DNA of 64,000 nucleotides from Leucoraja ocellata (Eukaryota). The notes beneath the pieces were generated by a model. It was not told the origin of the DNA and ran no database searches. It worked only from the letters and a program-made list of their open reading frames with translations. Each line of letters opens with the position of its first letter. The first letter of the stretch is position 1. The stretch lies in NCBI GenBank assembly GCA_036785375.1, contig JAWMAR010000026.1:8432001-8496000 (forward strand), given 5' to 3'. This document shows, one piece after another, positions 1,114-63,981 of this stretch. Made by a program: the position numbers and the translations under genes.

Positions 1114-1212
1114 TTCCATTACCCGATAATCCATTTCATAACTGGATTTATGGTTGCATCGGAGCAGGATTGATACCTCTCATAATCATTATTTTCATTG
1201 TGAAACGGAAAG
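1114..1212 (+). CDS. A1 transmembrane exon (neutral TM)
   Basis: tttacag|TT...AAA G|gtaagg, 99 nt; hydrophobic [20 protein letters not shown] followed by KRK stop-transfer. Confidence 0.85.
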
Positions 1213-13381: not shown

Positions 13382-13687
13382 CTATTGAAAAATCCTGATT
13401 CCTGCGTACTCTGTTTCATTGTTCTTCGCCGTTCTTGAATGTTTCAGAGAAGCGGCGAGATCCAGAGTTGCATAGGTCAGTTTATGTTCTGACACTTCTT
13501 TGACCTGTCGAAAAATAATCAGAGATCATGAGCTGCTGATTCGCCTATATGGGCGACGTACACGGATTTTCCTTGCAGTACACTTCCGCTTTTACCATAC
13601 CTGGCCATAGGTTGTTCGTTCTTCGTGGCGTTTGTTTTTCGTAGTTTTCTTCTGTCCGCTGAAGTTCATATCTGCATACGAAGGATA
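13382..13687 (-). CDS. B1 tyrosine-motif exons (13601-13687 and 13382-13504): ITIM/ITSM tail
   Basis: YPSYADMNFSGQKKTTKNKRHEERTTYGQ|VKEVSEHKLTYATLDLAASLKHSRTAKNNETEYAGIRIFQ*. Confidence 0.85.
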
Positions 13688-19600: not shown

Positions 19601-22600
19601 ACTTGTTGGTGTTCTGTGTGCAGTCCTGGTCATCCTGCTATACGTAGAATGTCATGTTGGAAAAGGTGCAGAAAGGAATCAGCAAGGTATTACCTGGAAT
19701 TCATGGCTGGAGTTATCCGGTGATGCTGAGCAGGTTGTGAGCTCTTCCCATGAGGTATAGGAGGTTTACCTAATTCAAGTATATAAAATTATGATGGGCG
19801 TAGAGAAAGTGAATGCTTATAGCCGTTTTTGCCAGGGTAATGGATTCTCAACATGGAAGGTTACGAGGCGCCCAAGGGGCAATTTATTTCTGAGGAAGCT
19901 ACAGAAGCGTATTCAATTGCGATTTTCAAAGGAATCTTGGATAGATATTTGGATAGGAAACATTTAGAGGGGAAATTGTCAAATGCGGAGAGAAGGGTCT
20001 AGGCCAGAATGGCAATTTGCTCGACGTGGACGGGGCGGGCCGACGGGCCATGCTTCCATGCTGTAGAGCTCTATATAATCGGAAATACACAGCGAGTTCC
20101 AGCGTCCGCTATTACACAAACATGCAAACACAACTGTCATATTTGCGCGATATTTCTTACTAATCAGTATCTAATTTCGTACACGGGTCCTACCTTTCCA
20201 TTTCAACAAAGGCATGCCCACAATCTCCATTCAAATAGTTAAAAACCGTCTGGCGTAAACTTTAGGTGGGAATTCATGAAATGCCTCGACATAAAACAGT
20301 GCTATATCTCAGGACGTTATTGAAGGTATAAACCTCATACCCATTCCAGGAAAACTGTGAGTTTCAACGGTCGGAACCAGGAGGGTGACGTGAGACACGT
20401 GGCAACTAAAATTCGATCGGCGATCCAGTACATGCAGGAAGCTGGAAGCAAGGTATAATCCCTCGTCGTTCCGTATTTTAGTGGTACTTATTCCAGAAGT
20501 GATTTCTTGGTCATCTTTATACCAGGTAAGTTCACAGTCCGCCGGGAAAAACGGAGCAGTCGTACAGTTTAGGGCCAGGGAAGGAGTGTTCATCTGTTTA
20601 ATCTTCAAAGGCGTCGGTGACACTGCAAACAATTTAAGACAAATTAGTTAGTACCCCTATATGTTTGTTTAGAAGTAATCGCTTTCGAAATGGATAATAC
20701 CATACCTTCTTGGGCGCTCCTTTAATAGTAAAGTATTTCAGCTACGTTGTTGGAAATATATAGTACAGCAAATACTTGTTATAACGCAGTTGCACCGGAC
20801 CACTATATATGAGCGCTATGTGAGGCGGGTGTCACCACCCATCACTTTTCCCAATGCCTTAATTCTGCCCATGCGACGAATGGAGAAACTATCGGCATGG
20901 CCGACTGAGTCTGGGGACGAGGGGCCAGCCAAGTCTCTGAAATAGAGCACAGAGCATTCGGTCATCTTTGATGAAGCTACCTTGCCTCTGGGATTTCCTT
21001 GTCATGGGCGATTCTCTTTCTATAATGCTTAACAGTTTTAGTTTATTATCACGTGTACCGAGCCACAGTGAAATGCTTTTTGTCGTGTGCTCAATCAGCG
21101 AAATTACTACACATGATTACAATTAAGCCGTCCGCATTGTACAGATTCAGGATTACCGGATAACGGTTAGTTCACGATAAAGTCCAGTAAAGTCCGATAA
21201 AAGATAGTTTGAAGATAGTTTGAGAATCTCCAGTTAGATAGATGGCAGGACTTGACCTCTCTCTAGTTGGTGAAAAGACGGTTTTGGGTACCTGCTGGGA
21301 ATGCAACGTTGCTACACCAGACAAAGCAGACTTCAACGTGGTACAATCAAACGGAAAATTGCGTTAATTAAGTATTCAGTAGTTGTTGATGTGGGTTTGA
21401 AATGGCGCGCTGTGCGGTGGGAAGGGCGTACTCAGTTGGGTGAAGTCTTTCTGGCATATTTCCACCCAAAGATCGACTATAACGCTAACGTGTAATTGCC
21501 ATTCAGAGTGAAGCTTCTGTTCTCCCACTCGACGCTCTGCTGGGTTCCAATGAAGCTCGACGAAAAATGACGGATAACGTTTTGATTAATATTCTCAATT
21601 TGCAATTTAATCATTTGAATTCTGGTTCTACTTTTATCTCCTTTGTTTAGATATTTTGTGACGTTGCATTATTCTCAGATTTCTCCCCGTTTATAATTTA
21701 ATGTTTTTTTTTCGTCTTCCATCCATACTAATACGCCACCACGCACCCCACCTATTCTTCCTTACGGTATCTCTGAATTTCTTGAACAATTTTCACCATG
21801 AACTTTTGTTACTTCCGCTATAACGTTCTAGGCAGAAACTAATTTCAGTAGTCACAGATGTGTTGTGACTCGTATTTTATCATTGATTTTCTTTGAAACT
21901 ATGAATTCCTAAAATCACGTTAGAATAGTCTTACACAAGATTGCGGTTAGAATATATCACGCTCACTATTCATCAAATGTTTCTTCTATCTACATACGTT
22001 TTGTTAACATTTACTATTTGGACTAGATATAACTACATAAATGGTCAAGTATGGTTATTCTGCAACAAAGAGCTCAATTCGTGATCCCCCAAGAATGCTC
22101 CATAGATACATAGACACATAGAATATAGGTGCAGGAGTAGGCCATTCGGCCCTTCAATCTGATCATGGCTGACCATCATCTGGATATCACAGGTCTCGAC
22201 TCGAACGCAATGCTTTTTTGACTAAACGACTGCAGCTACAATACTCACTAACATATGACGGAATATATATAATTGACTACTATCTGCAATCTTAATCTCT
22301 ACTCCTTTTGCAGGATGCAGTTGAGGGGCCGCCAAGAAAGTTAACCCTACACATAAAAATGATAATTAATTGGTATGAAATTAAAGAATAACGATTGCCC
22401 AAAGGTCTCATGGTCCAACAATCACGAAAAACCAATTACGTAGATCGTTAGAGCATAACTTCTAGTACCGACTGAGAAAGGGTCCGTTTATTGCTACTTC
22501 ATAACTCTGTCGCACACCATATTCCTTTTTGTATTGTGATTCGAAACATCAAGGAAGACTCACCGTTTACAATAATCCTCGTGCCATTGCTTTTAGAAAT

Positions 22601-23110
22601 CTTTCCATTCCCGCCTCTCACACTGCAATAATAGATCCCGGAGTCACGGAAGCTCACGTTCAACAGATGTAATTCGGCCGATCCCTTCAGGACATTGTTC
22701 ATTATCATCCTCCTGTTTGCGGTGGGATTCAACGTCCCTTCTTGACCGTCTCTCTTCCAGTATACATCCACCTGTGCATTCTGACCGAAGTTCGGGAAAG
22801 TACAGTATAGGGATACATTTTCACCTTTCACTTTCGTTACCTCATCAGGAATCTGACGCACCCTGAACGAGGAGGCCTCTTCAGTAACTGTCAAAATTAA
22901 AAACAAACGTTAAACATGTGAAATGACAATGAACGGATTGATAAAAATGCAAATAGCTGAAATAGCTCGACCCAAAAGTAAGTTACACATCTTATACTTT
23001 TCGCGGATTGACCTTTTCCCTGTTATTTTCGTTTAATAGAGGGAAATATATTAACCTGTGTGACTCATGAGCAGGGCCGAGAGACACAGCAGCACGGCAA
23101 ACATAAACAT
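13382..23110 (-). CDS. Gene B1: complete inhibitory VJ-C1-TM IgSF receptor (NKp30/CD28-like V, SIRP-alpha-like tail), 341 aa
   Basis: Exons (minus strand): leader 23056-23110 (MFMFAVLLCLSALLMSHT), V 22564-22887, C1 20341-20622, TM 14962-15072 (LVCFLAGGFAICVLIIPALVCYV), cyt1 14301-14344, cyt2 13601-13687, cyt3 13382-13504 with TAG. All GT-AG and phase-consistent, total 1026 nt. Tail motifs SYADM, TTYGQV, LTYATL, TEYAGI. Confidence 0.88.
14962..15072 (-). CDS. B1 transmembrane exon (neutral TM)
   Basis: ccctttag|GA...GAA G|gtaag; GTRVKLVCFLAGGFAICVLIIPALVCYVRRYKLHSTE. Confidence 0.85.
17960..18330 (-). mobile_element. CR1-type LINE 3' fragment (degenerate)
   Basis: Reverse-strand similarity to the other CR1 3' ends in the window. 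Confidence 0.6.
18680..18995 (+). mobile_element. tRNA-derived SINE (HE1-like); related copies near 1283-1460, 17750-17930, 23690-23995, 40205-40375, 54750-55050
   Basis: gcacagcggcgcagc...gagctgctg.ctcacagcg.cagaga head and ctctaaaactaa-type tail recur across the window. Confidence 0.6.
20341..20622 (-). CDS. B1 C1-set exon
   Basis: LNCTTAPFFPADCELTWYK...LYLASSFL...FSCHVSHVTL; C1-set FxP, W, YxxxSxL and CxVxH motifs. Confidence 0.9.
22564..22887 (-). CDS. B1 V-set exon (germline-joined VJ type)
   Basis: SLYC...VYW...LHLLNV...DSGIYYC...KSNGTRIIV; canonical V-set C/W/DxGxYxC; G strand lies in the same exon; phase-1 boundaries. Confidence 0.92.
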
Positions 23111-23229
23111 TCTGAAGCAAGATGATGAAATTCAACGATGTTTGTTCTCTGACAGCGAGTCAAGCAGTGAAGCTTGTTGGCGAGCGTCTTGCAGCAATAC
23201 CGCGTGGTCCGAATGGTTCCGTTTTACTT

Positions 23230-23237
23230 TGACGTCA
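23230..23237. promoter_or_regulatory. CRE-like palindrome TGACGTCA about 120 bp upstream of the B1 ATG
   Basis: Perfect TGACGTCA, retained in the B2 paralog at 54290-54297. Confidence 0.35.
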
Positions 23238-24012
23238 TAGCGCTGGAAAGCACAGCCAATGTCACGGAGAACACAGACGTTGCAGATATTATCTAGAAAA
23301 TATGGTGCATTGTGTATATCATTGAAAGTTTTGCTTTGATGCAGCTTCGCTCAGGTCACAAACCCGGTTAACCTTTACAGATGCTTTACATGATACGGCC
23401 AATCGAAAGTAGAATATCAAAGTAACGCAAAGAGAAATACATAAATAGAATTCGTGGAAAGTGTCGAAAAGAAATGCCTCGCCAGTCAAATCTAAGCGCT
23501 TTACAGATACTGCAGCAGTTAGAATGGGGGAAGAAAACCAACGCGTAGAACAAATAATCATATACTGTACATTATCTCTGCCTTGGGGTAAAAAGACAAA
23601 TAATGTTTATAGATATGCCGGTGAATAAAGGACGGGCGCAGAGGATAGACAAAAATAAATACTTTCAAAACCTAAATGTTACTAAAGAGTTTAGAATTTA
23701 GAGAATATAGAAACAGTCCCATCGGAGCATCGAATCCACGACAACCATCGATCACCTCTTGACACCAGTTCCATGTTATCCCACTTTCTCACCCACTACC
23801 TGCATGTTAAGGGCAATTTACAGCAGCCAACAAAGCAGCAATTCTTTGGGATGTAGGAAGAAATCAGAGCACACGTAGAAACCCCATGTGGTTATAAGGA
23901 GAACTTGCAAATTCCACACAGACAGCACCGAACTAGGTTAGGGTCAAACGAGGATCTCCGGCAATGGGAGGCAGCATCTCGACCAGTTACCACAATTGAA
24001 GAGGTTTATGAT

Positions 24013-25760
24013 TTGATTTGATTTGATTCAACTTTATTGTCATTGCACAAATACGAGTACAAGTACAACGAAATGCAGTTCAGCATCTAATCAGAGTGCA
24101 AGATAGTAAAAATACTGGTTAAAACAATATGTGCAATGTGGATGAATTAAACTAGTACATAGGCAATAAATGTATACAGATAAAAGAGTATAAATATAGC
24201 TAGCGTCGGGCCTGTGAGTTCAGCAAGGTGGTGGTATTTTGGAAAAAGCTGTTCCTCAGCCTGCTTGTGCGAGACCTGAGGCTCCTGTACCGCGGTTAGG
24301 GTGAGAGGGGTCCATAATGATTTTCCCGCCCGTCTCAGACACCGTTTGCGGTGGAGGGCATCCATGGCAGGGAGCGGGGCATCGATGATGTGCTGAGCGG
24401 TTTTCACCACACGTTGCAGTGCCATCCTGTCAGCTGTTGTGCAGCTGCTGTACCATACCGTGGAGCAAGTGGTCAGGATGCTTTCAATGGTACAGCGGTA
24501 GAAGTTGGACAGGATCTGGGGGGACAGGTGAACTTTCTTAAGCCTCCTCAGAAGGTAAAGGCGCTGTTGCGCCTTTTTGATCAGTTTGGTGGTATTAAGG
24601 GACCAGGACAGATCCTCTGAGATATGTACCCCGAGGAATTTGTAGTTGGAGACGCGCTCCACCTCAGTCCCGTTTATGTGGATGGGGGTATGTCTGCCAC
24701 CTCTGGTCTTCCTGAAGTCTACGTTGATTTCCTTCGTCTTCTTTGAGTTGATGAAGAGGTTATTATTGGTACATCAGGCTGCCAGGTTCTGGACCCCCTC
24801 CCTGTAGGCTGATTCGTTATTGTCTCTGATCAGTCCTACCACCGTGGTGTCATCGGCGAATTTTATGATGGCGTTGGAGCCATACATAGGGACGCAGTCA
24901 TGGGTGAAGAAGGAGTAGAGGAGAGGGCTGAGCACACAGCCCTGTGGCACGCCAGTGTTCAGTGTCAGAGTGGAGGAGGTGAGGTTGTTGATCCTAACAG
25001 ACTGGGATCTGTTGCTGAGGAAATCCAGTGTCCAATTGCAGAGGGAGGTGGTGATGCCAACACCGCTAAGTTTGGTGATCAAACTGGCGCGGATGACAAT
25101 ATTAAATGCGGAGCTGAAATCGATGAACAACAACCTGATGTAGGAGTTGTTATTGACCACGTGGGTCAGGGCAGAGTGTAGGGCCGCAGATGTGGCGTCC
25201 TCTGTAGACCTGTTGGGCCGGTAGGCAAACTGACGGGGGTCCAGTGTGGGAGGGAGGCTGGATTTGAGGTGAGCCAAGATCAGTCGCTCAAAGCACTTCG
25301 CGATGACAGGGGTGAGTGCCGCTGGGCAAAAGTTATTGAGACTCCCTGAAGCTGACTGTTTGGGCATTGGCACATTGGTTGAGGTCTTGAGGCAAGTAGA
25401 GACGACATCCTGGGCCAGTGACAGATTGAAAATGTCAGTGAAGACCAGGGATAGTTGTCCAGCACATGCCCTGAGCACACGCCCGGGATGCCATGGGGCC
25501 GGCAGCTTTGTGCTCATTCACTTTGCTCAGTACAGCAGAGGTGGAGAGACTGAGGGGTTGTCCATTCGGGGGTGGGGCAGCTTTGATGGCCGGTGTTATA
25601 TTGTCCCGATCAAAACGAGCATAGAAGTAGTTTAGCTCGTCAGGAAGGGAGGCGTTGTCTGGGGGGGGGGGGGGTGTTAACTTTATTGTAGTCGGTAATG
25701 GACTTGATGCTTTGCCACATGCGTCTGGGTTCGGAGATGTTTTGAAAATGCTCCTCGAAA
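24013..25760 (-). mobile_element. Rex1/Babar-type non-LTR retrotransposon, 5'-truncated, present in block 1 only
   Basis: RT motifs [13 protein letters not shown] and [13 protein letters not shown]-terminal KKAQQRLYLLRRLKK; AATAAA plus (CAAAT)n tail; empty site at about 55065. Confidence 0.85.
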
Positions 25761-27164
25761 ATGCGCCCAAGCATTGATGAATTCCAATCAGCTGGTCTTC
25801 AATACTCACAGATTTGTGGAATTTTGAAATATATATATTGGATATTATCCTCCGTGGTTCTATAGATTCAGTAATTATTCCTGGATAGTTCTGAATAGCA
25901 AATGTGAACCTTGCGTTTCGGGCAGCGAGAGAAAGAGAGGGATAGGATCGCCGCGAAACGGGAAGGTTAGATCAAATGTCATAGCAAACACGTGCTGCCT
26001 TGTAATTCTTGTTGTGCACATCGTGGCTCGTCTGCACGTGGCTGCTGCGTCTTTGGGGGTTTCCTCGGACTTTCAATCTTCCGAAGGCTTTTCAAAATTG
26101 GGGCTCGGCGAAAAGAGCACATAGAATAGGGATCAGCAGAGACGGGTGAATTGTGACTTGGTTAATGATTCGAAAGCGAAGAATCGGAATAGACAGACAC
26201 TTCTCAATGTGGCAGCTCGTCACCAATGGAAATTAGGCTGTGGGCCGAGCATCAAAAATGTGTCTAGAAATCGGGTTCGTGCCTCAAGTCACCGAACTAC
26301 AAGCAATTTCCCATAGATTTAGATGAAATATAAGTGAGAAGGAAGTCATAACTCGTCAGTGTCAAAAGTTGCACATTAATTAATTAAAATAATTTGAAAA
26401 TGAAATCGGGAAAGTAAGCGCCATCTAGTGGCCCATTCTCATATTGCACCACAGGCTGCTTATTTCCGTGTTGCAGTCCATTTAAACTATATTATTATAC
26501 CTATATATATATGACTTGTAAATATGACTGTAATCATATATAATTAAGTATAATTATATTATATGAAAATAATATGATTAATATAATTGTGAGTGTTTTT
26601 TTAATGACACTGTCGCAGAGGTCCTGCTCCTGAACCAGCCTAATTAATGGGTGAGGGCAGTTCTTGTGGGTTCCTCCCTTTACTGAACCCCACTGACTGC
26701 CAGTGTGCAGAGTGTGGTCACGGCCATAGTGGGACTGGGGCAGTTCCAGGCTGGGGGACAGTCCTGCAAGGCATCTTCCAGTCGCTTTAACAGGAAATGT
26801 AATGAAACTGCAGCAGAGGTCCCAGGTTTTAAGGGCTCGTGAACCTGCCCAATTAAAGGGTCAGAACAGATCCTCTGGGTTCCCCGTTTTACTGAACCCC
26901 ACTGACTGCCATAGTGGGGATAGTGGGGGCAATGGCCATAGTGGGACTGTGGCAGACCTGTAAGAGACCTGTCTTATTTCTGATGTAAATGTCACATCCT
27001 GACCAAGAATCGAATACTCTGATGTTTACTCGATGAGTATTCATTTTAAGCTACAATGAGCCTATATATATATATATGATAGAGACCCCCCTTGCAAATG
27101 AGGGCTATTGCCTTTAACCTAAAATAACCCTAAAAGTGTTGCATTATTTGAGTATCTGTAGTTT

Positions 27165-27360
27165 GTGCGTGTGTGTCTGTGTATACCTGTCAAACGTGTA
27201 TCTGTGGATGTGTGGATGTAAGTGTGCATGTATATGTGTATGTATGTGTGTGTGTGTGTGTGGATGTATGTGTGCATGTATGTGTGTGTGTGTATGCATG
27301 GAAGTGTGCGTACGGATGGATGTGTGTGTGGATGTGTGTATGTATGTGTGGATGGGTGGG
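27165..27360. repeat. (TG)/(TGTA)-rich microsatellite
   Basis: Seen directly. Confidence 0.9.
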
Positions 27361-27759
27361 CGGTTGCACTGTCATTCACCCGCACGCCATTATCATCAGT
27401 AATTCACTCATTGTTTAAATAATTTGACCAAATAAACAGTGAAACGATCGACACTAAAATAAAACTTTATATAATCATTTACTTCCACAATTTATTTGTT
27501 TACATTACATCTGATCGTCATCTGGATATTCTTCATCAGATTCCAAGTCTTTTGATAAGTTTTGATAAGTCCATTGATAAGTTAGTTCAAGTCCAAGTGG
27601 AAGGTCAAGCAGAGGCCAAAAAAAACATCTCATAGTCATTAAGTCTGCATCGACTTCAATTCATAACACTTCAACCTCTTCTTAATGTTAATGAGAATAC
27701 CACTGTTACTACCATAGATAAATTATGTTCAAGTTTGTTCAAATACACCAATTCATTTC

Positions 27760-30285
27760 TGTAAAGACTTCCAAACACGTGATGTCTTCACTACATGTTT
27801 TATTATAGATACTGGTATAAAACACACACAGTGCCCTAGCTGCCCGTGGTCTGTCACTGGAGCTAGAGAGGGAGAGAGACGTGAGGAGGCTACAGTTATA
27901 CTGAAGATAATGGGGCATGGTTAGTAGTGGTGAGGTCACTATGTTAAAGGAGCATGCACTGATCTATATCCTTCCCCTCGGAAAACAAAGTATTATAGCA
28001 GTGACAGTGCGAACACGACTCATACGCTAGAAACACCCTCCGCGCGTACACCGGCAAGAAACAGTTAACACATTCAAGCAAACTCCCCGTAACGTACAGG
28101 CGGCTTGACCAACTGCCCGGAGCGGGTGCGCAGCCCACCCTCCACCCCCCTTCCCCCCTTCCGCAGGAAGAGCAGGGACGAGAGCCGGGCCGGCGATAGG
28201 GGAACGGGCAGGAGAACTTGCCGGAGAGGGAGGACGAGGAGAGCGGGGAGGAGAAGCGGGAGAAGTGGGCACGGGAGCGGGCGAGGAAGGAGAAGGTGGA
28301 CTGGGAGGAGCCGGGGGAGAACGGGGCACACAGAGCTGAGACGGCAGAGCCCTGGGCATGCGAGGAGCGGAGGGCAGAGAGGAAGGAACCGGAGGGCCAA
28401 AGGGGGCTGCAGGGGGTGGAGCGGGCTCGTTGACCAGGAGCAGATGCTGGCGGGACCGGCGGTAGATGGTACCCTCGTACTCAACGAGGTAAGACCGAGG
28501 AGAACCTGCAGAGCCGACGACCACGGCTAGCCGGTAGTGGCCGGAGGGGGACCGCATCCGGACCACCTGATTTGGGAAGAGACGCGGAAGGGGACGACAG
28601 GTCCTGGCGTGAGAGCGCTTCTGGATGGCCTGTTTCTGGGCAAATCGCTCCTGGACAGTGGCAGGGCTGAGGACCGAGGGCTGCAGAGATCGATGTGAGA
28701 CAGGGATCGGAGGGCGTGTGGTGCGGGACATGAGCCGCTGAGCAGGCGAGCCCAGGGCAGGGTCACGGGAAATATTGCGGAGGTTGAGGATGGCCAGGTA
28801 AAAGTCCGACAGTGAAAGTCTGCAATGCTCCAGCAACTCCTTTGCACTGCGGACGGCGCGCTCAGCAAGGCCATTGCTCTGCGGGTACTCCGGGCTGTTG
28901 GTGATGTGGCGAAAGTTCCAGGATGCAGCGGAGGCGTGGAACTCCGCACTGGACAACTGGCCGCTGGTGTCAGACTGCAAAGTAACTGGAGAGCCAAAGG
29001 TCGCAAAGTGGCGGCGCAGCTTCCCGATGACAGCAGCAGATGTGAGGGTGGGTAGTAGTACGGGCTGAGCTCTTAAGGAAGCCTGATCTGACTTTAAACG
29101 AGGCTTTGCATTCCTCTCGTATGGCTGCTGCTGTTGCCTCTGTATCTACACCTGCTGCTCAGGATGTTCACTATGCCAGTGCTGCTGGGCGCAGGCGGAA
29201 CGATGGCCCGCTACGCCAGCGTAGTGCTCCCGCACCCGCGAGGGATGGCCCACGTCGTTGCCCCAACTGCAACTTCGCTAGTCATCAGTTTAATGTTTGC
29301 CCCACGCTGGGGAAAACTTGCAATTTCTGCCGAAAGCTAAATCACTTTTCTGCAGCTTGTCGTTCCACTGGCAGGCCGGTCCCTGCTCCACGGAGGAGCC
29401 TAAACAACCTTGCTGAGACTGATAGCACTCTTGGTTCCCAGCACCATTCAGACGAACTCCTTGATTCAGATCAGGCTCCTCCCATGATGAATCGTCTATT
29501 TTTTCGCTCTTGGGTGCACCTGCTTTGATAAAGGATCACTCTGTACGTGTTACCGTGAATGGGTCGACCTTTACCGCGAAGGTCGACATGGAGCTTTCGC
29601 CAATGTTATGTCAAGGAGCCTCTTCGAGCAGATAAGATCTGGTGAGAAGGTTACTCCCGACGACTCCCGTCTTCATGCCTATGGGAGAGGAGTGCTCACA
29701 CCAGTCGGAAAAACAACCCTTATCTGCACAGTTCTGCAGACCTCTCGGCCCCTCACTTTCCTCCTGCTAGACTCTGAGAATGTAACTCTGTTGGGCGCTC
29801 GTGCATGCCAGGACCTCGGTTTGGTTTCCTTCCACCGCGGTATCTACCTGGTGCAGGCCCCCATGGATCCCATGATCGAGTACCCCGATCGTTTTGGTGA
29901 TGTGTTGGGGAAGTTACCCTGCAACTACAAGATCGCTGTGGACCCGCAGGTCGATCCGGTAATCCTCCCGGCTCACCACGTCTCCTTTGCCATGAAGGAC
30001 AGGGTGGAGTCAACTCTGCGCCACATGGTGGCCACGGACATACTCAAGGAAGTGAGTGATCCCACTTCTGACACCATGTAAAGACTTCCAAACACGTGAT
30101 GTCTTCACTACATGTTTTACTATAGATACTGGTATAAAACACATACAGTGCCCTAGCTGTCCGTGGTCTGTCACTGGAGCTAGAGAGGGAGAGAGACGTG
30201 GGGAGGCTACAGTTATACTGAAGATAATGGGGAGTGGTTAGTAGTGGTGAGGTCACTATGTTAAAGGAGCATGCACTGATCTACA
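27760..30285 (-). mobile_element. Gypsy/Ty3 LTR retrotransposon, internally deleted and inverted
   Basis: 209-bp LTRs at 27760-27968 and 30077-30285 (minus strand TGTAGATC...TTTACA; the 3' LTR starts TATAGATC). 5-bp TSD ATTTC, PBS TGGTGTCAGAAGTGGGAT, purine tract. Integrase SPEYPQSNGLAERAVR on minus; gag CCHC knuckle and protease/RT start on plus. Confidence 0.9.
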
Positions 30286-30734
30286 ATTTCTACATAAACA
30301 TCAGCCATTTCTGGCCATTTCTCACTGCAATGGTAGCCTATAAAGTGCAATAAATATTCTTCCGTTTTTCTCCCGTGGTCGGGGCCTTGAAACAGCCGCT
30401 ACGGCCGGCACTGTGTACAGCCACTATGTACAGCCTTCCACCCCCCCCCCCCCCCCCCCCCCGCCCGCCCGCCCGCGGAGATGATCGCGAATCGGCCGCT
30501 TCTTAATTGAGACCGCGGCTTCATCATTTTAATACATAGGCCCCGCGATCGGAGCACTTTTTCCCGGTAATTTATCGCAGGCAGCTCCGAGATTAGATGT
30601 TAAAGATTTATTATCTATAACAAGCTGGCATTACTGAAAATGTTTAATTTACCTTGTGTTATGGATACACATAGTTTAGGCCCTCAACTTCATGATTGAG
30701 TGAATGAGTGAGTGAATGAGTGAATGGGTGAGTG

Positions 30735-31038
30735 NNNNNNNNNNNNNNNNNNNNNNNNNNNNNNNNNNNNNNNNNNNNNNNNNNNNNNNNNNNNNNNNNN
30801 NNNNNNNNNNNNNNNNNNNNNNNNNNNNNNNNNNNNNNNNNNNNNNNNNNNNNNNNNNNNNNNNNNNNNNNNNNNNNNNNNNNNNNNNNNNNNNNNNNNN
30901 NNNNNNNNNNNNNNNNNNNNNNNNNNNNNNNNNNNNNNNNNNNNNNNNNNNNNNNNNNNNNNNNNNNNNNNNNNNNNNNNNNNNNNNNNNNNNNNNNNNN
31001 NNNNNNNNNNNNNNNNNNNNNNNNNNNNNNNNNNNNNN
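30735..31038. other. Assembly gap inside a (TGAG/TGAA)n microsatellite (about 30695-31095)
   Basis: N run flanked by tetranucleotide repeats. Confidence 0.99.
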
Positions 31039-32608
31039 ATGATTGAGTGAGTGAGTGAGTGAATGAATGAATGCATGAATGAATGAGTGAATGTACATAA
31101 GGACAGCTATTTAAAATCGAGTCGCATCGGAATTGCTTTTCACGGAACTCCCTATGGAGTTATGAGGGGAGATTATTGAAAGCATTTAATTGAATTACCG
31201 ATATTTGATGTGAAAGACCAGGGGATGGAAGGCTATGGGGAAATGGCATAGAAGGAGAATTGGGGGCAAGGGTGGATTAAGGACTTGCTGAATGACGGGC
31301 GGCCTTCAGTGTTCAGATAGCATATTCCCTGTTCCTAGCGCTTAAATGTTGCGGAAGATAGATGCAATTAACTGGCGTAACTCACCGGGACAAGCAGCAT
31401 CTCTGGAGAGAAGGGAAGGGTGACACCTCAGGTCGAGACCTTTCTTCAGACAGTTTTACTTCTTCAAAGTAGACATACCTTGAGGAGATTTCGCAGTGGA
31501 GCGCGCAAAATGTGTCAAAAAAGTACTGCAGATAATGGTTTACATCGAAGGTAGACACAACATGCTGGAGTAACTCAGTGGGCTAGGAAGCATCTCTGGG
31601 GAGAAGTAAAGGTGACGTTTCAGGTCGAGACCCTTCTTCAGTCTCGACCCGAAACGTCACCCATTCCTTCTCTCAAGATGCTGCCTGTCCCGCTGAGTTA
31701 TTCCAGCATTTTGGGTGTATCTACAGTTTTATTTCTTGGTCTTTTGACTCCTACCGTTTTTCCCGAATCGAAAGCGATCTTTTTTTTTTAATCCTGTTAC
31801 ACGGAGAAATGGGAATTGCGTTAAATTGGTCCCATCATCCAGGCGGAATTATGCTCGACATCCCACTCCTGCCTCAGCTCGAATGTACGCGGACCATCGT
31901 AGAACTGCAAAATATTGCCGATCTGAAGCCTGTTTCGATGACAGAGAAATACTCTCTTATGTACATCCTCGATTAATTGCCAGTTTTGACCATGATGTGA
32001 ACCGCTCGCCTTTCAATTTGCCAATTAACTCAACAATGTGAACCTCTGGCGCTTTGCATGTCATACGGCAGTTAAATGTAGCAAAGGCTGGGCAAAGGGT
32101 AAAAGGAGGAGGAGGTAGCTGAACTGTTTCGAGAAAGGCACCATGTACTTACTTGATACTCCATGATGACTTAGCTTTGCTAGCATCATGGCGTGTTGAA
32201 TGGAAAGTATTGGCGCAATCAAAGCAGGGCGCATCTGCGACACGTCACTGTATTTTCACAAAGGTCGACCGTGGACACCAAAGTGGACACCACATTCGTG
32301 ACGATCAGTACGAGGACATTGCTTAATAGATCGCATGGGCAAAAGCGCAATGGCAGCCATTTCTAGCTGCATTGAATGTCTGTAGTTGTTCAGCAAATGC
32401 TTTGTGAAGTTTTCGGAAACGTGTGAGCAGCCACTAACTTCACCTTTGCTCCGCGTCAATGCGCAGAGAGGCAGCTCATGCATGAGATGAGCATGAGCAG
32501 ACTCACTTTCCGGCACACCCACTGAACCCAAGCATACTCGCGGTATTCCTCGCTCACTATTTATTCGACACTTGTTTCAGTCGACTGTTCTCTGCAGTTT
32601 TGCCGTGA

Positions 32609-35600
32609 ATGATGACACGTGTCTTACTGCAATTGATTGTTCTTCACATCAGCTGCGCCGGTATATTTTACTCTTGCTATAGACAGTCCGACCGAAAGTT
32701 AATTATCAATTTATATGTTTGCTGATCCTTTATCTTTATTTATTTTCTCATTTCGTGCAATTTTCAATTAATTTGGTCAATACCTCGCTTTAATCCTAAA
32801 CCTTATAGTTTGATTTTTCGTTTCCCGACAGCTGGTGGCGATGGTCCGTTGACCGTAACACAAGTTCCAGAAGCAGTTTTGATGCGGGGTGACTCGGCAG
32901 TGCTTTACTGCATTTATCCAATCTTCTCAGACAACAAGCTGTACACAGTGCATTGGTGGAGAGATGGGGATAATAGATTCCTGGATGAAAGTGCAGATAG
33001 ACGAATCCAGTTTTATTTCCTGAGAGGGGGAAGCGCTGTCTTACGGGTGGAGGACGTGACAGTGAAGGACGCCGGGCTCTATTTCTGCAGCTTGACACGT
33101 TCCAAAGTTTTAAATGGGACTGGTACAAAGCTGGTAGTTTACGGTGAGTTTCGGGGAGAGGAGTGAGCCAGATCGGTTAACTTCACCACCTCAAAGCGAT
33201 TAGCTGAATCACGTTGAAGAAATTCCGCGTTATTCATCACCTGTGTCCTTTGAAATAACATGATTTGGGTGATTGGTTAGAGAGTATTTTTGACGCAATT
33301 ACCAAAGAATCCGAATAGACTGATTGAGAGAGTAAATGACGCCTTCCACATCTCCTGCTTGACAGAATTATAAAACCTTTCGCGTATATTTTAGAATTGC
33401 TTTAACACGGCTGGAATGGAAACCAACGACACAGGTAGTTGTGATTGAAAATATGTAGAGTTCCGAATGTGGTACTGATCAAGGAGATTATTATTTTTAA
33501 TTGATTTATTTGCATCTGCCATCTGTTTTATCTGGTGTAAGGAATTACAAGTGTATTGCCCCTGTCCCACTTAAGAAACCTGAACGGAAACCTCTGGAGA
33601 CTTTGCGCCCCACCCAAGGTTTTCGTGCGGTTCCCGGAGGTTGCAGGTGCTTGCCGGAGGTTGCAGGTAGTGGAAGCAGGTAGGGAGACTGACAAAAACC
33701 TCCGCACGGAAACCTTGGCGCAATTACCGGTCTAACGCAATATCAATGTTATTATTGTACTGCACCCTCTCCGGTGGTAGATGTTCCAGGTATGCAAAAC
33801 GTCTTCTTCTCCTTTACATTTTTTCTCGTTTGACCTAAAAACCCTGCCACATAGTTCTTAATTCCACTATTCTGGGGAAAAGACTTATATGCTATGAGTG
33901 GCCCCGATATTAAAAACAAAAACGTCTATTAAGTTACTCCTCTGCTTCCTTCCTTCCATTGAGAATAAACGCAGTTCACCAAATGTCTCGTTATAAAAAA
34001 GGTCCTCTATTTCAGTCAACATTGTGGTGAACCTCTTTTGCACTTGCTCAATTGGTACCATGTTTAACCGTGGTATAAGTTTGGTCACACTTCTGATTGC
34101 CCCGGATTACTTGAAATGATATAGGAGCCGTGAAGCGAGTCAATCATTGAGGAACGCAACATTCAAGATCTATATTGTTACATTTAGTCTGCAGAAGGGT
34201 CACCACCCGAAACGTCACCTATTCCTTTTATCCAGAGATGCTTCAGCGCGCTGAGTTACTCCAGCTTTTTGCCAGGTTTAACCCAGAATCTACAGTTCCT
34301 TCCTACACATTGTTGCATTTACGTGTATTCTCCGCTCACCTTCCAAGCGATAGAAAACTTCCCCCTGGTCCAAGTTTACAATATTTTTTCACACAAGGAC
34401 ACATTTTTCTGACCTTCTAGCTCAAACATATTTTGACCTCAAGTTACTGCTGAATAAATTTTCTGCTCGATTTATTTATTCCATATAACCATATAACCAT
34501 ATAACAATTACAGCACGGAAACAGGCCATCTCGGCCCTACAAGTCCGTGCCGAACAACTTTTTTTCCCCTTAGTCCCACCTGCCTGCACTCATACCATAA
34601 CCCTCCATTCCATTCTCATCCATATGCCTGTCCAATTGATTTTTAAATGATACCAATGAACCTGCCTCCACCACTTCCACTGGAAGCTCATTCCACACCG
34701 CTACCACTCTCTGAGTAAAGAAGTTCCCCCTCATATTACCCCTAAACTTTTGTCCCGTAATTCTGAAGTCATGTCCTCTTGTTTGAATCTTCCCTATTCT
34801 CAAAGGGAAAAGCTGGTCCACGTCAACTCTGTCTATCCCTCTCATTATTTTAAAGACCTCTATCAAGTCCCCCCTTAACCTTCTGCGCTCCAGAGAATTA
34901 AGACCTAACTTATTCAACCTATCTCTGTAACTTAGTTGTTGAAACCCAGGCAACATTCTAGTAAATCTCCTATGTACTCTCTCTATTTTGTTGACATCCT
35001 TCCTATAATTGGGCGACCAAAATTGTACACCATAATCCAGATTTGGTCTCACCAATGCCTTGTACAATTTTAACATTACATCCCAGCTTCTATACTCAAT
35101 GCTCTGATTTATAAAGGCTAGCATACCAAAAGCTTTCTTTACCACCCTATCTATATGAGATTCCACCTTCAAGGAACTATGCACGGTTATACCCAGATCC
35201 CTCTGTTCAATTGTATTCTTCAATTCCCTACCATTTACCATGTACGTCCTATTTTGATTTGTCCTGCCAAGGTGTAGCACCTCACATTTATCAGCATTAA
35301 ACTCCATCTGCCATCTTTCAGCCCATTTTTCCAAATGGCCTAAATCACTCTGTAGACTTTGGAAATCCTCTTCATTATCCACAACACCCCCTATCTTGGT
35401 ATCACCTGCATACTTACTAATCCAACTATTTCAACAACGACAAAGAATATATTTGTAAAATTTAGATTGTCGAGCTATTATTATGGGTTACATTTTGTAC
35501 AATTATATCACCAAATTATAATATAAATCGTGAAGACGTTTTGAAAATTCAAGTTGCTTAAGAAGGAACTGCAGATGCCGGAAATCGAAGGTAGATAAAA

Positions 35601-38600
35601 ATGCTGGAGAAACTCAGCGGGTGCAGCAGCATCTATGGAGCGAAGGAAATAGGCAACGTTTCGGGCCGAAACCCTTCAGTCTGAAGAAGGATTTCGGCCT
35701 GAAACGTTGCTTATTTCCTTCGCTCCATAGATGCTGCTGCACCCGCTGAGTTTCTCCAGCATTTTTGTGTACCTTAGAAAATTCAAGTTAATGCTTTGGC
35801 TCTTGATGTCAGAACGCATCATTTACTTGCGCTGCGAGTAGAAACAGAAACGATATGATATTTATGAAGTAAGGTAACTGTTGTATAATAGACCCAAACT
35901 GTAAAATCAGGGCATACAATAAAAAGGTTTAAAAGGAATGAAATTAGACGTTAGTTTATACCACAAGGAACAAACTTAACAGTTTTAAATCGCTTTAAGT
36001 GCATTCGTTATACAACTAGGCTGCAAAAAATATGGTTCAATTAAGATTATTTTCGAGGCTACAATGAAATTTGATTCGTCACGAAAATCACCGGAACTGG
36101 TGAAATTTAAAAATCGTTTTATTTTCCAGACCCTCCAACTCCTCTGAGCTTGACCACCATGCTGCCGGAGAACACATCGGTTACTCTGATTCTCGTTTGT
36201 AAAACAGCAACGTTCTTTCCTCTTGATCTGAATATTACTTGGTACAAAAATGGGTCAGATATTATACAGAAGATTGAGCCAAACAAAACGCAGACATCAG
36301 CAGGACTGTACGAAGCTTGGAGCTGCCTGACCGAGACAGACGATGTGGAGAGCGGGACAGTTTATACCTGCCAGGTGTCTCATATTTCTCTTCCAAATCC
36401 AACCAATATCAGCTACACTTTCTACAGCCGAGGTAAGAATAACGATACGTTTACGGTATAATTTGGCCACTTAGAACCCTGATTACCCCATGAACAGGCG
36501 CAGATAATAAAGAATAATATTGTTCGTTTAGCATATATAGGACCGTTGATATATTGTGTACTTCCCTTTCACTGATGTGAGCTCATCAACTGTAATTCCT
36601 TTGCCTAATTGAAGCAAAACACGGGCATTTAGCAGATAACAGCCAGCCTGTTTCAGTGACAGCGCTCCTTTCAGCACATCTTCAGCAGGCGCACCAAAAT
36701 ACTATTATTCCCAACCAGCCTTGTCGATTTCGCAAAGTCGTCTGCTGTGGATTTACTAGTTCACCACTCAACGTCTTTCGAACATAGCTTAGTGCACGGA
36801 CAATAATTATTGATTAGCTAAGGCAATTATTACAACGAAATTGATCGTATAATAATTTGAAGAGCTGGCTTTGTCTAGCAGATTCTGCACCTGGGGAGTT
36901 ATGAATACCGTTAAATGAATTAAGGTTGTATTTTAGAATTCTCAGTTTTAACGCGGACAGTCATGGCTCAGGAACACACATTTGCTAAAGTTATTGTCAC
37001 CCGTCCGCCTGTGAACGAATGTAGAAGCAAGACATAAATGCTAGCAATGAGAGGAACACATTGACATAGAAGTCGTACGAGCAATAAACCGATGTAAAAT
37101 GCGTCTTCCATCATGAATGATTGATTTACAATCTTCTTCTGCTAGAAATGTCAAACAGGGCGATTCACCTCGGCATACGAACGAATGTTCGCTTGTGCAA
37201 AAGTCACACTTTCTGCATATGGCCTCACCTATCATGCAAATATACTCCTGCCATATTACGTTAGCTTCGCCCGGCATGTGATTTACTCTTCCCTCAATAT
37301 GTTTCTCCAGATTTGGACTGGACTTATTCTCCTTTGCACCAATCCACTCAGCACCCAGTGAGGTTCTTTAAACTTTACAAGGGATTTACTCATTCCTGTT
37401 TCACGATTTCTAAACATGTCGAGGCAGGGGAAGACAACATTCCACAAAGTACTTCTGCGTGTTTTTCATTTATGTACCATTATTCTTGAACTTTATGCTC
37501 CCCATAAATTACTTTTTGCACCGGGGCATTATCATTCGCTTGCAGATTTTACACGATCAGTGATAATTGACATTTTTCAACTGAATTGCGTTCCATAATT
37601 CCAGGTTCACTTACTTTAGTTGTTAGAATTCAATTTCCAATAAATTCCAATGTACTCTTTGCTAAACGTAGGCAGCGTCCGCCCATGCTTAAACAAATCC
37701 ACCAGATGGTTTCAATGTAATTAAATTAGAGACAGGCGAAAATTTAGTCATGATCTGCCTGCATCATCATTGAAGTAAAATAACCGAATTAGAAAACCTA
37801 CGCCAGAATTTCGGTAAATATATTGAGGGCATGCTGTTTCATGCCCGAATAAGGACCATTGCTTGTATAGAAAAGACATTTGTACAGAATGGAGAACGTC
37901 TAACGAGCAAATTTTACAATTAATTCCCGTGTGTCTATATTGGACAAATATTTTGTTGATGAAGTAACAAGCCAATTTGATGAATCATTGTTGTAGATGA
38001 CGTCAATAAGATGTTTTGAGAAAAGGATTCGACAAAGCTTCAAATAAAATGTTGGTTATTAAATTTGTCGCTCATAGACATAAAGCAAACAACTAATAAA
38101 TTTTAAACTAATAAACCGGTTGCAGCTCCTAGACTGTGGAACAGCATCCCCCTTCCCATCAGAACTGCCCCGTCCATTAAGTCAAGACCTTACCTATACT
38201 CCCAAGCCTTTCCTGACGTCCACTGAGCGCGGGCTATATGTTTATATGTATGTAGTTTGTTTGTTTATACTATTCTTATAACAAATGTAAAGCACTTTGG
38301 GCAACGAGAGTTGTTTTTTAAAATGTGCTATATAAATAAATGTGACTTGACTTGACTTGAATAAACAAATGAGTTTTCAGGAAGGCATACGAAGGAATGT
38401 GGTGGAGAGAGTAACCAAGAAAAAGCGGGGAATAGGACGTTGCTCTTCGATTATCCGGGTTCGAAATGATGGATGTAATAAGGTCTACTAAGTAATCAGT
38501 TCACGGTTCTTACAAAACTTGCAATCAAAGATAAAAGCTGACCGATGTCTGTTGTAATTTGATGCATTTGAAATAAGATCACGAGACAGGACGGAAATTG

Positions 38601-40885
38601 TTTTGTCCGCATCCTTTCAATAAAGATGCGCGGGTATGCCGATCCAAATCATTGCTTATTTAATGTAATTTAATAGTTCTGCTGATAGGTTGTTATTAAT
38701 TAATTACCTCAAATTAATAACAATATTCTGTGTTTGGAGGGGATAATGTGAAGCTGCCGCAACACCTAAGCCCAGGTAGTTCATTGAAATTCTGCAGGAA
38801 AGGCGCATTGTCGACTGTGTATTTTGACTGTATCCATTTTCAATAGACAATAGACAATAGACAATAGGTGCAGGAGTAGGCCATTCGGCCCTTCGAGCCA
38901 GCACCGCCATTCAATGTGATCATGGCTGATCATCCCCAATCAGTACCCCGTTCTTGTCTTCTCCCCACATCCCCTGACTCCGCTATCTTTTTTAAGAGCC
39001 CTATCTAGCTCTCTATTGAAAGCATCCAGAGAACCGGCCTCCACCGCCCTATGACGCTATGTGCCACCCTGAAGACATAGAACATCTATCCACCTTTGGA
39101 AAGGAAATACTAAGTCATGTACATCAATATAATTAAGGGCTCTAAAATACAGATTTTCCATCGGCACCCTGGATTAAAAAATAAACAAAATATAGGAATG
39201 TGTATTCAAAAATGCTGGAGAAACTCAGCGGGTGCAGCAGCATCTATGGAGCGAAGGAAATAGGCAACGTTTGCTCCATAGATGCTGCTGCACCCGCTGA
39301 GTTTCTCCAGCATTTTTGTGCACTTTCGATTTTCCAGCATCTGCAGTTCCTTCTTAAACACATAGGAATATGTATTTCTGTGTTGTACGATACTTCGTTT
39401 GTAACTGCTCAGTCACAGCGAGCAAAATCTACCTTGGATTATCTTCCCACTCTCTTGAATTTAATTTAAAAGATTCCTGTCGATTTGGGATCGCAATTCA
39501 CACCAAAATTCAATTTCCACAATTACATTCCCAATATTCCACGAATATTGCACCGTCTGGAACTCAGCGTTGGGCACATCAGGGCCGACATAAACGTAAT
39601 GATGGCGGGGGGATGTTTCTAGCCTCACTGTATAATCACATGATGAAGAGTAAATACGTGTTTTTATCATTTCCAATTTCTGGATATTCCACAGGATGGC
39701 CTGTTGTACCGACACAGCTATACATCACTACACGTTACGATCTGCAACATGGCTATATACGCACTTCGAAGTAATTAGTATTGGTTGTAGCCAAATAAAA
39801 AAAATTCTGCACCTCAATTATGCTTTCATTATATGAGTCATATGCACACAACTGGTATTGGACAGAAATGGAAGCCAGCAACTGCGCTCGTGGGCAATGT
39901 TCCCATCGGTTTATTTCGCGTCGGAAAGTCAAATCGATATATTTTTTTAAAAGACAGAATGACGCTGTTGAACTGATTGCCTGTCCTATTATATAATACT
40001 GTACATATGTTAAAATTAACCACTATTTTTTTTTTTATCGTTTACAGTTTTTATTAATCCACCTCATAACACGATTGTTGGTTGGATAAGAGCAGGATTG
40101 ATAGCTATCATAATCGTTATTTTCATTGTGATATATAAAGGTAAGACTCCGAAGCTACTTGATCTCTAGATTGTTGTAAAATTAACCAATCGGAATTCAG
40201 CAATACTTTAGTTTAGTTTAGAGATACAGCGCGGAAACAAGCCCCCCGGCTCACCGAGTCGGCGCCGAACAGCGATCCCCGCAACCTACACACACTAACG
40301 TCAATTTATAAATATATCAAGCCAATTAACCTACAAACCTGTAAATCTCTGGGGGAAAACCAGATGTACTGGAGAAAATAATGTTTGAGAGTGTTATTGG
40401 ATCGGACACAACGCGGTTAGCTAATCTATAAATACACCCGCCGCATCTCACTAGGTGCATGGTTTCCCGGAAGCTAACCTTTGAGCTAGTCACCGATTTG
40501 TACATGAAGGATTGATGCTTGGTGTTGTGGGCCAGGTTGTGGAATAAGGGGTGGAGTCTGAGAAAATGGGTCGGTGATGCAAAAACTCATTTTGCAATTG
40601 ATTCTGCTTCGATTCGACAACTTGAAGAGGACTCATATTCTGTAGATTTTTAACTATTGATATCGTGATATTAGTTTCACTGCATACATGTATACAAAAA
40701 CAAAAGTAATCAGAAAAATATAAAGTTTTATATGCTGCTAGATGTATTGGCTACCACTCTTTGTCTCGGCCAAGAGTGATTTTTTTTCTCTCAATCACCT
40801 CTCTATAGGGACGTGCAGAACATCGAAAGAAGGTGCCGATCAGAAACCGAAGGCAAGACGAATGAATGAATGTATGGATGAATAG
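32609..40885 (+). CDS. Gene A2: complete activating-type VJ-C1-TM IgSF receptor (TM arginine, short tail), 278 aa
   Basis: Leader 32609-32660 (MMTRVLLQLIVLHISCA), V 32832-33143 ending NGTGTKLVVY, C1 36130-36432, TM 40048-40140 (TIVGWIRAGLIAIIIVIFIVIYK). Last exon 40809-40885 reads through a GT>GC mutated donor to TAG. Phases are consistent. Confidence 0.85.
32832..33143 (+). CDS. A2 V-set exon (germline-joined VJ type, GxGTxLxV)
   Basis: VLYC...HWW...DAGLYFC...LNGTGTKLVVY; cgacag| ... G|gtgagt. Confidence 0.92.
34485..35425 (-). mobile_element. CR1-type LINE 3' portion, young, in the A2 V-C1 intron
   Basis: Uninterrupted 270-aa ORF2 C-terminus 34570-35382; (CCATATAA)n tail. Confidence 0.9.
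35555..35780. mobile_element. Penelope-like palindromic repeat; related copies near 16415-16510, 31350-31725, 34185-34300, 39200-39360, 44625-44815, 55110-55230, 56835-57100, 59030-59145, 59580-59680
   Basis: Long inverted repeat aaaatgctggagaaactcagcggg...gtttcgggccgaaacc / tctgaagaagg...gaaacgtt...ctgagtttctccagcatttt. Confidence 0.6.
36130..36432 (+). CDS. A2 C1-set exon
   Basis: LVCKTATFFPLDLNITWYK...LYEAWSCL...YTCQVSHISL; ttccag| ... G|gtaag. Confidence 0.9.
40048..40140 (+). CDS. A2 transmembrane exon with Arg (codon 40089-40091)
   Basis: tttacag|TT...AAA G|gtaaga; paralog of 1114-1212 with GGA>AGA. Confidence 0.85.
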
Positions 40886-43884: not shown

Positions 43885-44190
43885 CTATATTAAAATCTTC
43901 ATTCCTGCATATTCTGTTACATTATTCTTCTCCGTTCTTGGGTCTTTCGGAGAAGCGATGAGATCCAGAGTAGCATTGGTCAGCTTATTTTCAGACACTT
44001 CTTTGACCTATCGAAAAATAATCAGAGATCATTAGCTGCCGATTCGCCTATATGGACGACGTACGCGAATTTATATTGGAGCACCCTTCCGCTTTTATCT
44101 TACCTGGGCATTGGTAGTTTGTTTTTCGTGCCGTCTGTTTTTCTCAGTTTTCCTCTGTCCGCTGACGTTCAAATCTGCACACGTCGCATT
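43885..44190 (-). pseudogene. Vestigial B2 tail exons (44104-44190 and 43885-44007) with mutated ITIM/ITSM tyrosines
   Basis: NATCADLNVSGQRKTEKNRRHEKQTTNAQ|VKEVSENKLTNATLDLIASPKDPRTEKNNVTEYAGMKILI*; same lengths and splice sites as B1, but downstream of the stop/frameshift. Confidence 0.8.
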
Positions 44191-63318: not shown

Positions 63319-63981
63319 ATGTTTCTGAAAGTGTCACCTTGGACGATATATTTCCTTGGAATTTTGAATGCGGGTAAATTAGGGCTTCTATTGTTTTTTA
63401 TTTATGTGTCTTCAAATTAGGCAGATATGATAGTTGTACCTTATAATGTTATGTCGAATTATCCATAAAGTCATTGCTGTCGTATGAGTTCTGGAAAGGA
63501 GGGTAATTTACGAAACCTTTACGAGGACACAAAAAGCGGGCATAATTATTATCTGGGCTCCCATTGTAAATATTTGGGCTGAGTGCAATAAGATTTTTGC
63601 CTGCAGTGTTACATTTCCATTGCTGTATATCAATGACTAAACTGGATTTGCACCATCTATTGACAGCTGCTGAGAACAGGTCGGGCAAGACGATATCGAA
63701 TGTTGCAAATCAGAATACGGTGATCAGTGGCATAAATTTTACATGTCGGTGTCCCTTCCCCTTCAATGTAAATCTGACAAACCTGGAGGTTTTCTGGTGG
63801 AAAGATGGAAATAAAGGCTTCCTGAAAGAAGATAGCAGGAAAATCTTCACTATACGGGCAGGAGGCGCCTACCTGCACCTGCTGAATGTCACGGTCTCGG
63901 ACGCCGGAACATACAAATGTCTTGCAAAACAAGCGGGCCGAACGGTTGGGAAGGAAACAAGAGAGCAACTGATCGTATATG
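63319..63981 (+). CDS. Gene A3 (5' part): leader 63319-63373 and V-set exon 63667-63981 of a divergent family member
   Basis: Leader MFLKVSPWTIYFLGILNA|gtaaat. V: AAENRSGKTISNVANQNTVISGINFTCRCPFPFNVNLTNLEVFWWKDGNKGFLKEDSRKIFTIRAGGAYLHLLNVTVSDAGTYKCLAKQAGRTVGKETREQLIVY|gtgagc. Not shown in the ORF track. Confidence 0.85.

Follow-up and report, generated by a model that had tools for sequence, protein, structure and literature searches.

The window analysed here is a stretch of 64,000 nucleotides of the skate Leucoraja ocellata (assembly GCA_036785375.1, contig JAWMAR010000026.1, below C26, positions 8,432,001 to 8,496,000 of the forward strand). Genes B1, A2 and B2 lie entirely within it, gene A1 is represented by its 3' half, and a third subfamily, C, by a V exon. 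These genes belong to a large, SIRP-like paired-receptor family of cartilaginous fishes, which is real and apparently undescribed. The family is likely to act as SIRP-like paired receptors, with A1 and B1 predicted to be inhibitory and A2 and B2 predicted to be activating.

Gene structure and paired tails

The segment 20341..36432 extends exactly from the end of the B1 C1 exon to the end of the A2 C1 exon. For this segment the original prediction had described V exons that each contain a J-like G strand and splice directly to one C1-set exon, followed by a transmembrane (TM) part and without recombination signal sequences (RSS). This observation was confirmed, with both G-strand motifs as quoted (Table 1). 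B1 (minus strand) and A2 (plus strand) have AG/GT sites at their V and C1 exons, their leader, V, C1 and TM exons splice in frame, and in the exon models the V exons are unbroken from strand A to strand G. V-to-C1 splicing was judged from the splice sites together with orthologue models in RefSeq, not from reads. The whole window was scored for RSS (heptamer-spacer-nonamer). No site with up to 3 mismatches was found versus 2.0 expected (5 simulations), 11 sites had 4 mismatches versus 15.8 expected, and nothing by the V exons or elsewhere rose above background. The genes are non-rearranging leader-V-C1-TM receptor genes.

Domain classes were assigned with Pfam profiles. V-set was the top call for three of four V exons tested, the V exon of the C gene having Ig_3 on top. 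All three C exons were called C1-set (48.5-49.8 bits, cut-off 21), with C2-set_2 at 30.3 bits or less. C1 hallmarks, as defined in a section of PMC2785349, were found in nearly all of 28 exons, counting the mirror copies from an inverted near-copy of the window: Cys-13-Trp in 27, (F/Y)(F/Y/H)P in 27 and C-x-V/I-x-H in 26. A profile search with the family C1 matched Ig lambda C with 49 bits and UrIg2 C1 with 43 bits. For a shark orthologue, the model of the C domain superposed at 1.4-2.3 Å on C1 domains of major histocompatibility complex (MHC) class II and of Ig. By Pfam, hallmarks, profile search and fold, the second domain is C1-set and not C2/I-set.

B1 encodes 341 residues and is a predicted inhibitory receptor. 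Its tail carries four tyrosines, arranged as two repeats of the immunoreceptor tyrosine-based inhibitory motif (ITIM) type and switch motif (ITSM) type. A1 has at least four tyrosines, and shark, ray and chimaera orthologues have 2-3 ITIM/ITSM-type repeats. A2 and B2 have each gained a TM arginine by a one-base change from the codon of the partner, and both have lost the tail. A census of C26 was done by hand on 21 non-redundant genes, mirror copies being counted once; the TM was located in 19, and the other two were omitted. An in-frame tyrosine tail was present in 0/8 genes with an Arg-TM versus 10/11 genes without (Fisher p 1.2e-4; p 0.005 when collapsed to lineages). In one of the Arg genes a tyrosine exon persists, but the frame ends directly behind the helix. 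Among database proteins (filtered set, isoforms included), the strict tyrosine motif was found in 0/17 Arg versus 25/42 non-Arg members. In quick-method trees, inhibitory and Arg forms of subfamily B are sisters in Heptranchias, Mobula (two species) and skate. Relic ITIMs in activating receptors mark the textbook inhibitory-to-activating route, exemplified by KIR2DS2 in a passage of PMC3533184.

NxxR, given in a passage of PMC2413239 as an FcR-gamma-associating TM motif, occurs in database members P0088, P0110, P0176 and P0181 and in two skate genes upstream. Two zeta-family TM exons are present in this genome. An ancient activating TM exon of the form R...IIVDH was looked for in the window and not found. 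RNA depth over B1 was repeat-dominated, with 0 on the V/C1 bins (three raw runs) and 0.39 on the V bin (one contig set). The A2 TM exon had none from two RNA sets, depth again being repeat-dominated; these depths speak neither for nor against expression. The Arg codon of A2 is the same in a contig from another organism.

A1 and A2 are 98.4% identical in the V exon and 97.4% in the C1 exon, whereas identity falls to 62-85% in three intron flanks next to these exons and to 80% in the TM exon. The short leader-V intron (99.7%) appears to be converted too. The contrast is milder between B1 and B2 (ectodomain exons 96-97.5% versus 91-95%, TM exon 88%). The C1 exon of A2 in the window differs by 6-8 bases from both A1 copies and by 24 from its own mirror copy. 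The comparison points to recent gene conversion.

The nearest database protein, 97% identical, is from the skate Leucoraja erinacea, and the matches of two database searches (15/15 and 24/24) were all from cartilaginous fishes. Relatives were found in 17 named cartilaginous fishes (sharks, rays, chimaera), a count that adds 20 look-ups (17 chondrichthyan, and 3 reptile outliers picked on purpose). Their RefSeq names are automatic and inconsistent (SIRP-alpha-, tapasin-related-, B7-H6- and light-chain-like). In the V tree as well as in the C1 tree, sharks and rays are both represented in each of subfamilies A, B and C, which therefore predate the shark-ray split; the trees were made by a quick method, include no SIRP, B7-H6 or NKp30, and their deeper forks are not settled. 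On C26 the tandem family has at least 21 genes, which lie in clusters at 7.83-8.50 and 11.96-12.15 Mb, and further family matches are on contigs C578, C1270 and C105. A subfamily without TM arginine or tyrosine motif was seen at C26 12.07-12.08 Mb and in P0071, P0072 and P0151; it has a cysteine/lysine-rich tail that is conserved in sharks. The next immune match of the family profile was a turtle family of multi-V receptors with G-x-G-T strands, ITIM and Arg-TM forms (P0073, P0122, P0125, P0166), which may be a tetrapod relative.

For the paired receptors, the following mode of action is proposed. The V domain would bind a self ligand, and the phosphorylated ITIM/ITSM tail would recruit SHP-1/2; a passage of PMC12975943 provides the SIRP-alpha precedent for a tyrosine tail of this function. 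The Arg partner would be triggered by the same ligand or by a pathogen-mimic ligand and would signal via a dimer with immunoreceptor tyrosine-based activation motifs, FcR-gamma or CD3-zeta. Gene conversion would keep the ectodomains of inhibitory and activating partners alike.

Comparison with SIRP and weighing of the paired design

SIRP-like signalling had been proposed in the original prediction and is retained, together with the V-C1-TM structure; paired inhibitory/activating organisation and family size were no part of that prediction. Both the skate and the SIRP family have a V-set domain with G-x-G strand and a membrane-proximal C1-set domain, a four-tyrosine inhibitory tail, a short-tailed activating partner with basic TM, and a tandem cluster. 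A joined V and C1 with ITIM tail is given as a SIRP property in parts of PMC2785349 and PMC11599192. The nearest ESM Atlas clusters were SIRP-alpha-like (0.96), and the best PDB sequence match was SIRP-gamma (53 bits). SIRP has V-C1-C1 according to a passage of PMC12975943, whereas the skate family has one C1. The mapped genes have one C1 exon per V, apart from a single additional stray C exon. Two near-identical C1 occur in one Amblyraja model, which may represent merged genes. The skate Arg lies near the outer helix end, whereas SIRP-beta has a mid-helix Lys and uses DAP12. The skate family comprises about 20 genes in ancient subfamilies and is linked to HYDIN; human SIRP genes are linked to NSFL1C.

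The skate NSFL1C-like gene was identified by its SEP domain and reading of exons. In the surrounding 260 kb (contig C667, 200-460 kb), neither a V nor a C1 exon was detected. Duplicated FAM110-like and TRH-receptor-like genes (by eye) lie beside the NSFL1C-like gene at C667 280-408 kb. A search for opioid precursors gave weak matches only, on another contig, and a CD47-family search gave no match anywhere, with controls likewise silent. Because of the single C1 and the lack of V/C1 exons near the NSFL1C-like gene, the family is not classed as SIRP. It is nevertheless predicted to work like SIRP.

The family could still be the true SIRP lineage of cartilaginous fishes, either as co-orthologues or as genome-duplication-sister copies, the second C1 having been added later in bony vertebrates. 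We consider this a serious candidate, to be rated somewhat below an even chance. V/C1 content, four-tyrosine tail and paired design are alike, ESM Atlas top matches and many RefSeq model names are SIRP-alpha-like, and there is no competing SIRP in the 260 kb near the skate NSFL1C-like gene. The single C1 speaks against it, as do the HYDIN and septin flanks, with SEP-domain and syntaphilin-family genes on other contigs. Furthermore, reading the short proteins from the top 150 profile matches revealed no tetrapod SIRP of the V-C1-C1 type. Human 16q, with the HYDIN region, and 20p13, with the SIRP region, may be duplication sisters, which would favour the SIRP lineage.

Two further systems combine inhibitory and activating forms. 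In FcR-gamma-associating paired receptors (LILR/PIR, NKp46, Xenopus XFL), ITIM forms stand beside Arg-TM forms as here, and NxxR is shared with some skate-family members; their ectodomains are C2-type, not V-C1. MDIR are likewise multigene activating/inhibitory Ig receptors of skates, but they are CD300/TREM/pIgR-like, with no C1 reported in the passage of PMC3031540.

Several points weigh against the paired-receptor interpretation. Because the genes of the census share ancestry, its p values assume more independence than there is, and 17/42 non-Arg database proteins are without a strict tyrosine motif. The Arg helices of the window (A2, B2) are without the Asn of NxxR, which also separates them from the FcR-gamma-associating receptors. 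The B2 Arg may lie at the membrane edge, and the B2 TM has 12 changed codons versus 1 silent, which relaxed selection is also able to give. As to SIRP likeness, the 53 bits of SIRP-gamma are level with B7-H6 (51) and IgM (52), and SIRP V domains were not in the top 60 matches of either V exon. The V fold search tied many families, and the absence of SIRP V from its matches carries no weight as a negative. PDB domain-profile searches were dominated by multi-domain chains, so that V relatives are not rankable.

Accidental loss was considered as the origin of A2 and B2, which would then be decaying duplicates with tails lost by drift and arginines present by chance. Decay would account for the GC donor and missing tyrosine exons of A2 and for the frameshift and relic exons of B2. 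It also fits that a single base separates each Arg codon from that of the partner, and that the Amblyraja model P0138 has a short tail without Arg. However, the reading frame stays open through the leader, V, C1 and TM exons and their splice sites are intact, while neighbouring introns of the A pair are 15-38% diverged. Arg and tail loss also coincide in 8/8 genes, about six TM lineages. Decay is thus regarded as unlikely, and the paired-receptor interpretation is preferred.

Antigen-receptor, CD28, NKp30 and B7 links

The proposed J likeness of the G strand held in part. A G-x-G-T/S strand was present in 15/27 skate V exons, but the J consensus F/W-G-x-G was found in 0/27 skate V exons and 0/76 database V domains, and the B1 strand is without the first glycine. 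The J-Phe position is mostly taken by the Asn of a glycosylation sequon (43/64 database V domains), which would hinder VH/VL-type pairing. According to a passage of PMC11599192, a single-exon V with G-x-G strand is common to CD79, NITR, SIRP, CD8, NKp30 and PRARP.

The original prediction had further proposed an NKp30/CD28-like V on a TCR (T-cell receptor)-like body. Where skate B has KSNGT, 11/11 shark and ray B orthologues fitting the pattern have G-x-G-T (1/12 did not fit). The CD28-like KSNGT is therefore a recent skate-derived substitution; G-x-G-T is also present in a skate paralogue. The CD28-family motif PPP/EIP of complementarity-determining region 3 (part of PMC11599192) was absent in 15/15 aligned V exons. 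NKp30 scored only 21-25 bits against the V exons, level with TCR-alpha, VNAR and pIgR, and the V fold does not separate these either (Z 12.7-14.3). The CD28 family and NKp30 have a G-x-G-type G strand as here, but a single V and no C1, unlike the present genes with a C1 exon after each V. The mosaic is not supported. A separate V exon with EIP motif was observed on contig C228, like those of CD28H-type receptors in a passage of PMC11599192.

Structure comparison with Foldseek was divided on the antigen-receptor body. Fab light chains were the top matches, but at a root mean square deviation (rmsd) of about 8 Å, whereas B7-family/SIRP-gamma chains aligned at 3.2-4.7 Å; the predicted template-modelling score (pTM) was only 0.49. 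The model, whose hinge is of low confidence, resembles linear B7/SIRP chains more than Fab. Links to antigen receptors, CD28 and NKp30 are weak.

It was also considered that the genes are pre-RAG antigen-receptor relics akin to PRARP/UrIg, perhaps forming TCR-like A/B heterodimers. The joined V and C1, the G-x-G-T/S strands, the Ig lambda C and UrIg2 matches of the C1 profile and the Fab top matches would agree with this, and V plus C1 in SIRP has already been proposed as an antigen-receptor link in a passage of PMC2785349. PRARP, VJC1, UrIg and UrIg2 likewise have a single-exon V with G strand, then C1, and no RSS. Against it stand the missing F/W-G-x-G, the sequon at the J-Phe position and the poorer superposition on Fab. 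ITIM tails and a HYDIN-linked site are also unlike the MHC/antigen-receptor complex in passages of PMC12227049 and PMC10751288, though no search for MHC markers was made on C26. UrIg has three C1 and UrIg2 nine, both being MHC- or Ig/TCR-linked homodimers in the relevant part of PMC12227049, versus one C1 here. ITIM tails, paired forms and another locus also set the skate family apart from UrIg and UrIg2. With PRARP/VJC1 it shares a joined V plus one C1. A relic of this kind is improbable, and the cluster is probably not a leftover T-cell receptor. Multi-C1 proteins resembling UrIg2 (P0036, P0093, P0106) were seen among the profile matches.

That the genes are B7-H6/B7-type ligands and not receptors is very improbable, since repeated conserved ITIM/ITSM exons with Arg-TM partners are receptor features, even though B7-H6 matched at 51 bits by sequence and Z 14.5 by fold, and some RefSeq models are so named. 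B7-H6 (NCR3LG1) is a ligand with a two-domain V-C1 ectodomain of similar predicted linear shape; we know of no paired ITIM/Arg multigene design in it. The lizard B7-H6/tapasin-like outlier P0156 joins no subfamily in the C1 tree, where deep forks are not settled.

Feature positions, genomic surroundings and significance

Exons of the window are listed in Table 1. The leader, V and C1 exons of A1 lie 4-8 kb before the window start. Its last exon was looked for and not found, as was a tyrosine exon downstream of the A2 tail. A candidate A2 leader near 25990 was dropped in favour of the one at 32609.

Table 1. Exons of the receptor genes in window coordinates
Feature	Position	Strand	Basis or remark
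A1 TM exon, uncharged	1114..1212	+	
A1 cytoplasmic linker exon	1872..1915	+	
A1 tyrosine exon 1: IVYSDF, TIYTQ	2818..2928	+	
A1 tyrosine exon 2: LTYTTL (ITIM), TVYAQ	8902..9012	+	
B1 last exon: LTYATL (ITIM), TEYAGI (ITSM), stop	13382..13504	-	
B1 tyrosine exon 1: PSYADM (non-canonical), TTYGQ (ITSM-type, finished by next exon)	13601..13687	-	
B1 cytoplasmic linker exon	14301..14344	-	Phase 1 to 0 exon scan; open in model
B1 TM exon, helix uncharged	14962..15072	-	Exon/splice model
B1 C1-set exon	20341..20622	-	Pfam C1-set 49 bits; AG/GT
B1 V exon, G strand KSNGTRIIV	22564..22887	-	Pfam V-set 51 bits; AG/GT
B1 leader exon	23056..23110	-	ATG, hydrophobic stretch, phase-1 GT donor
A2 leader exon	32609..32660	+	Leader scan; like leader of shark orthologue P0002
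A2 V exon, G strand NGTGTKLVV	32832..33143	+	V-set 34.4 bits; predicted local distance difference test (pLDDT) of model 91; AG/GT
A2 C1-set exon	36130..36432	+	Pfam C1-set 48.5 bits; AG/GT
A2 TM exon, WIRAG with Arg; CIGAG with Gly in partner A1	40048..40140	+	
A2 short tail	40809..40885	+	GC donor; read-through stops after 25 residues, no tyrosine
B2 relic tyrosine exons, out of frame, 3/4 tyrosines replaced	43885..44190	-	
B2 linker exon, frame ends	45560..45606	-	Stop reached ahead of any tyrosine motif by 3/3 splice routes tested
B2 TM exon, Arg (YFRAG) where B1 has Leu (CFLAG)	46261..46371	-	
B2 C1-set exon	49336..49617	-	Pfam C1-set 49.8 bits; 96% identical to B1
B2 V exon	53634..53957	-	Pfam V-set 51.4 bits; 97.5% identical to B1
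B2 leader exon	54130..54184	-	
Subfamily C V exon	63667..63981	+	C1 exon just past window; copy ends at 200-N run

The inverted near-copy of the window (C26 8.368-8.498 Mb versus 7.967-8.09 Mb) is 95-99.5% identical. The inverted arm lies between two 200-N runs, and homology ends at one of them; it probably represents a second haplotype that was not collapsed and was placed in the scaffold. Duplicate matches were likewise observed on the contig pairs C578/C1270, C62/C308 and C14/C904.

For the flanks, 80 open reading frames were chosen from about 300 ranked candidates of this contig-level assembly. The cluster is flanked by HYDIN (Hydin_ADK 57.7 bits), with a septin exon on the other side (weak, 18 bits). 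Flank genes were of HYDIN-, septin-, UBA-domain- and G-protein-coupled receptor (GPCR) type; MHC markers were not searched on C26. Inside the HYDIN gene, at about 8.637 Mb, the other strand carries a UBA-domain exon that is TDP2-like by eye, and tandem duplicated single-exon GPCR genes lie left of the cluster at 7.71-7.74 Mb. Between B1 and A2 (window 28030-30078) lies a Gypsy-like retroelement fragment, with frames resembling integrase, gag and protease distributed over both strands; a direct repeat of 207 bases borders it at 27760 and 30077. Reverse-transcriptase fragments of long interspersed nuclear elements were seen in introns and intergenic parts at window 7379-8035, 9468-9977, 24150-25971, 34573-35430 and 47035-47577.

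No description of the family was found in the literature searched; Ohta 2019, Fu 2019, the first UrIg paper and supplements were outside the search and may list genes of the family. No strong candidate is added for the gene invaded by RAG. Tentatively, the cluster may be the main, so far undescribed chondrichthyan paired-receptor system and at the same time the two-domain form in which the SIRP lineage survived, on a genome-duplication sister of the tetrapod SIRP chromosome. If true, a V-C1 ITIM receptor would be older than the second genome duplication and lie outside the MHC paralogon, and activating forms would arise repeatedly by a one-base Arg change plus tail loss, with the ectodomain copied by conversion. 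The family would bear on the origin of SIRPs and of C1 domains outside antigen receptors, and the cluster shows activating receptors derived from inhibitory ones several times. Sharks, rays and chimaeras would gain a sizeable named repertoire of candidate inhibitory and activating receptors.

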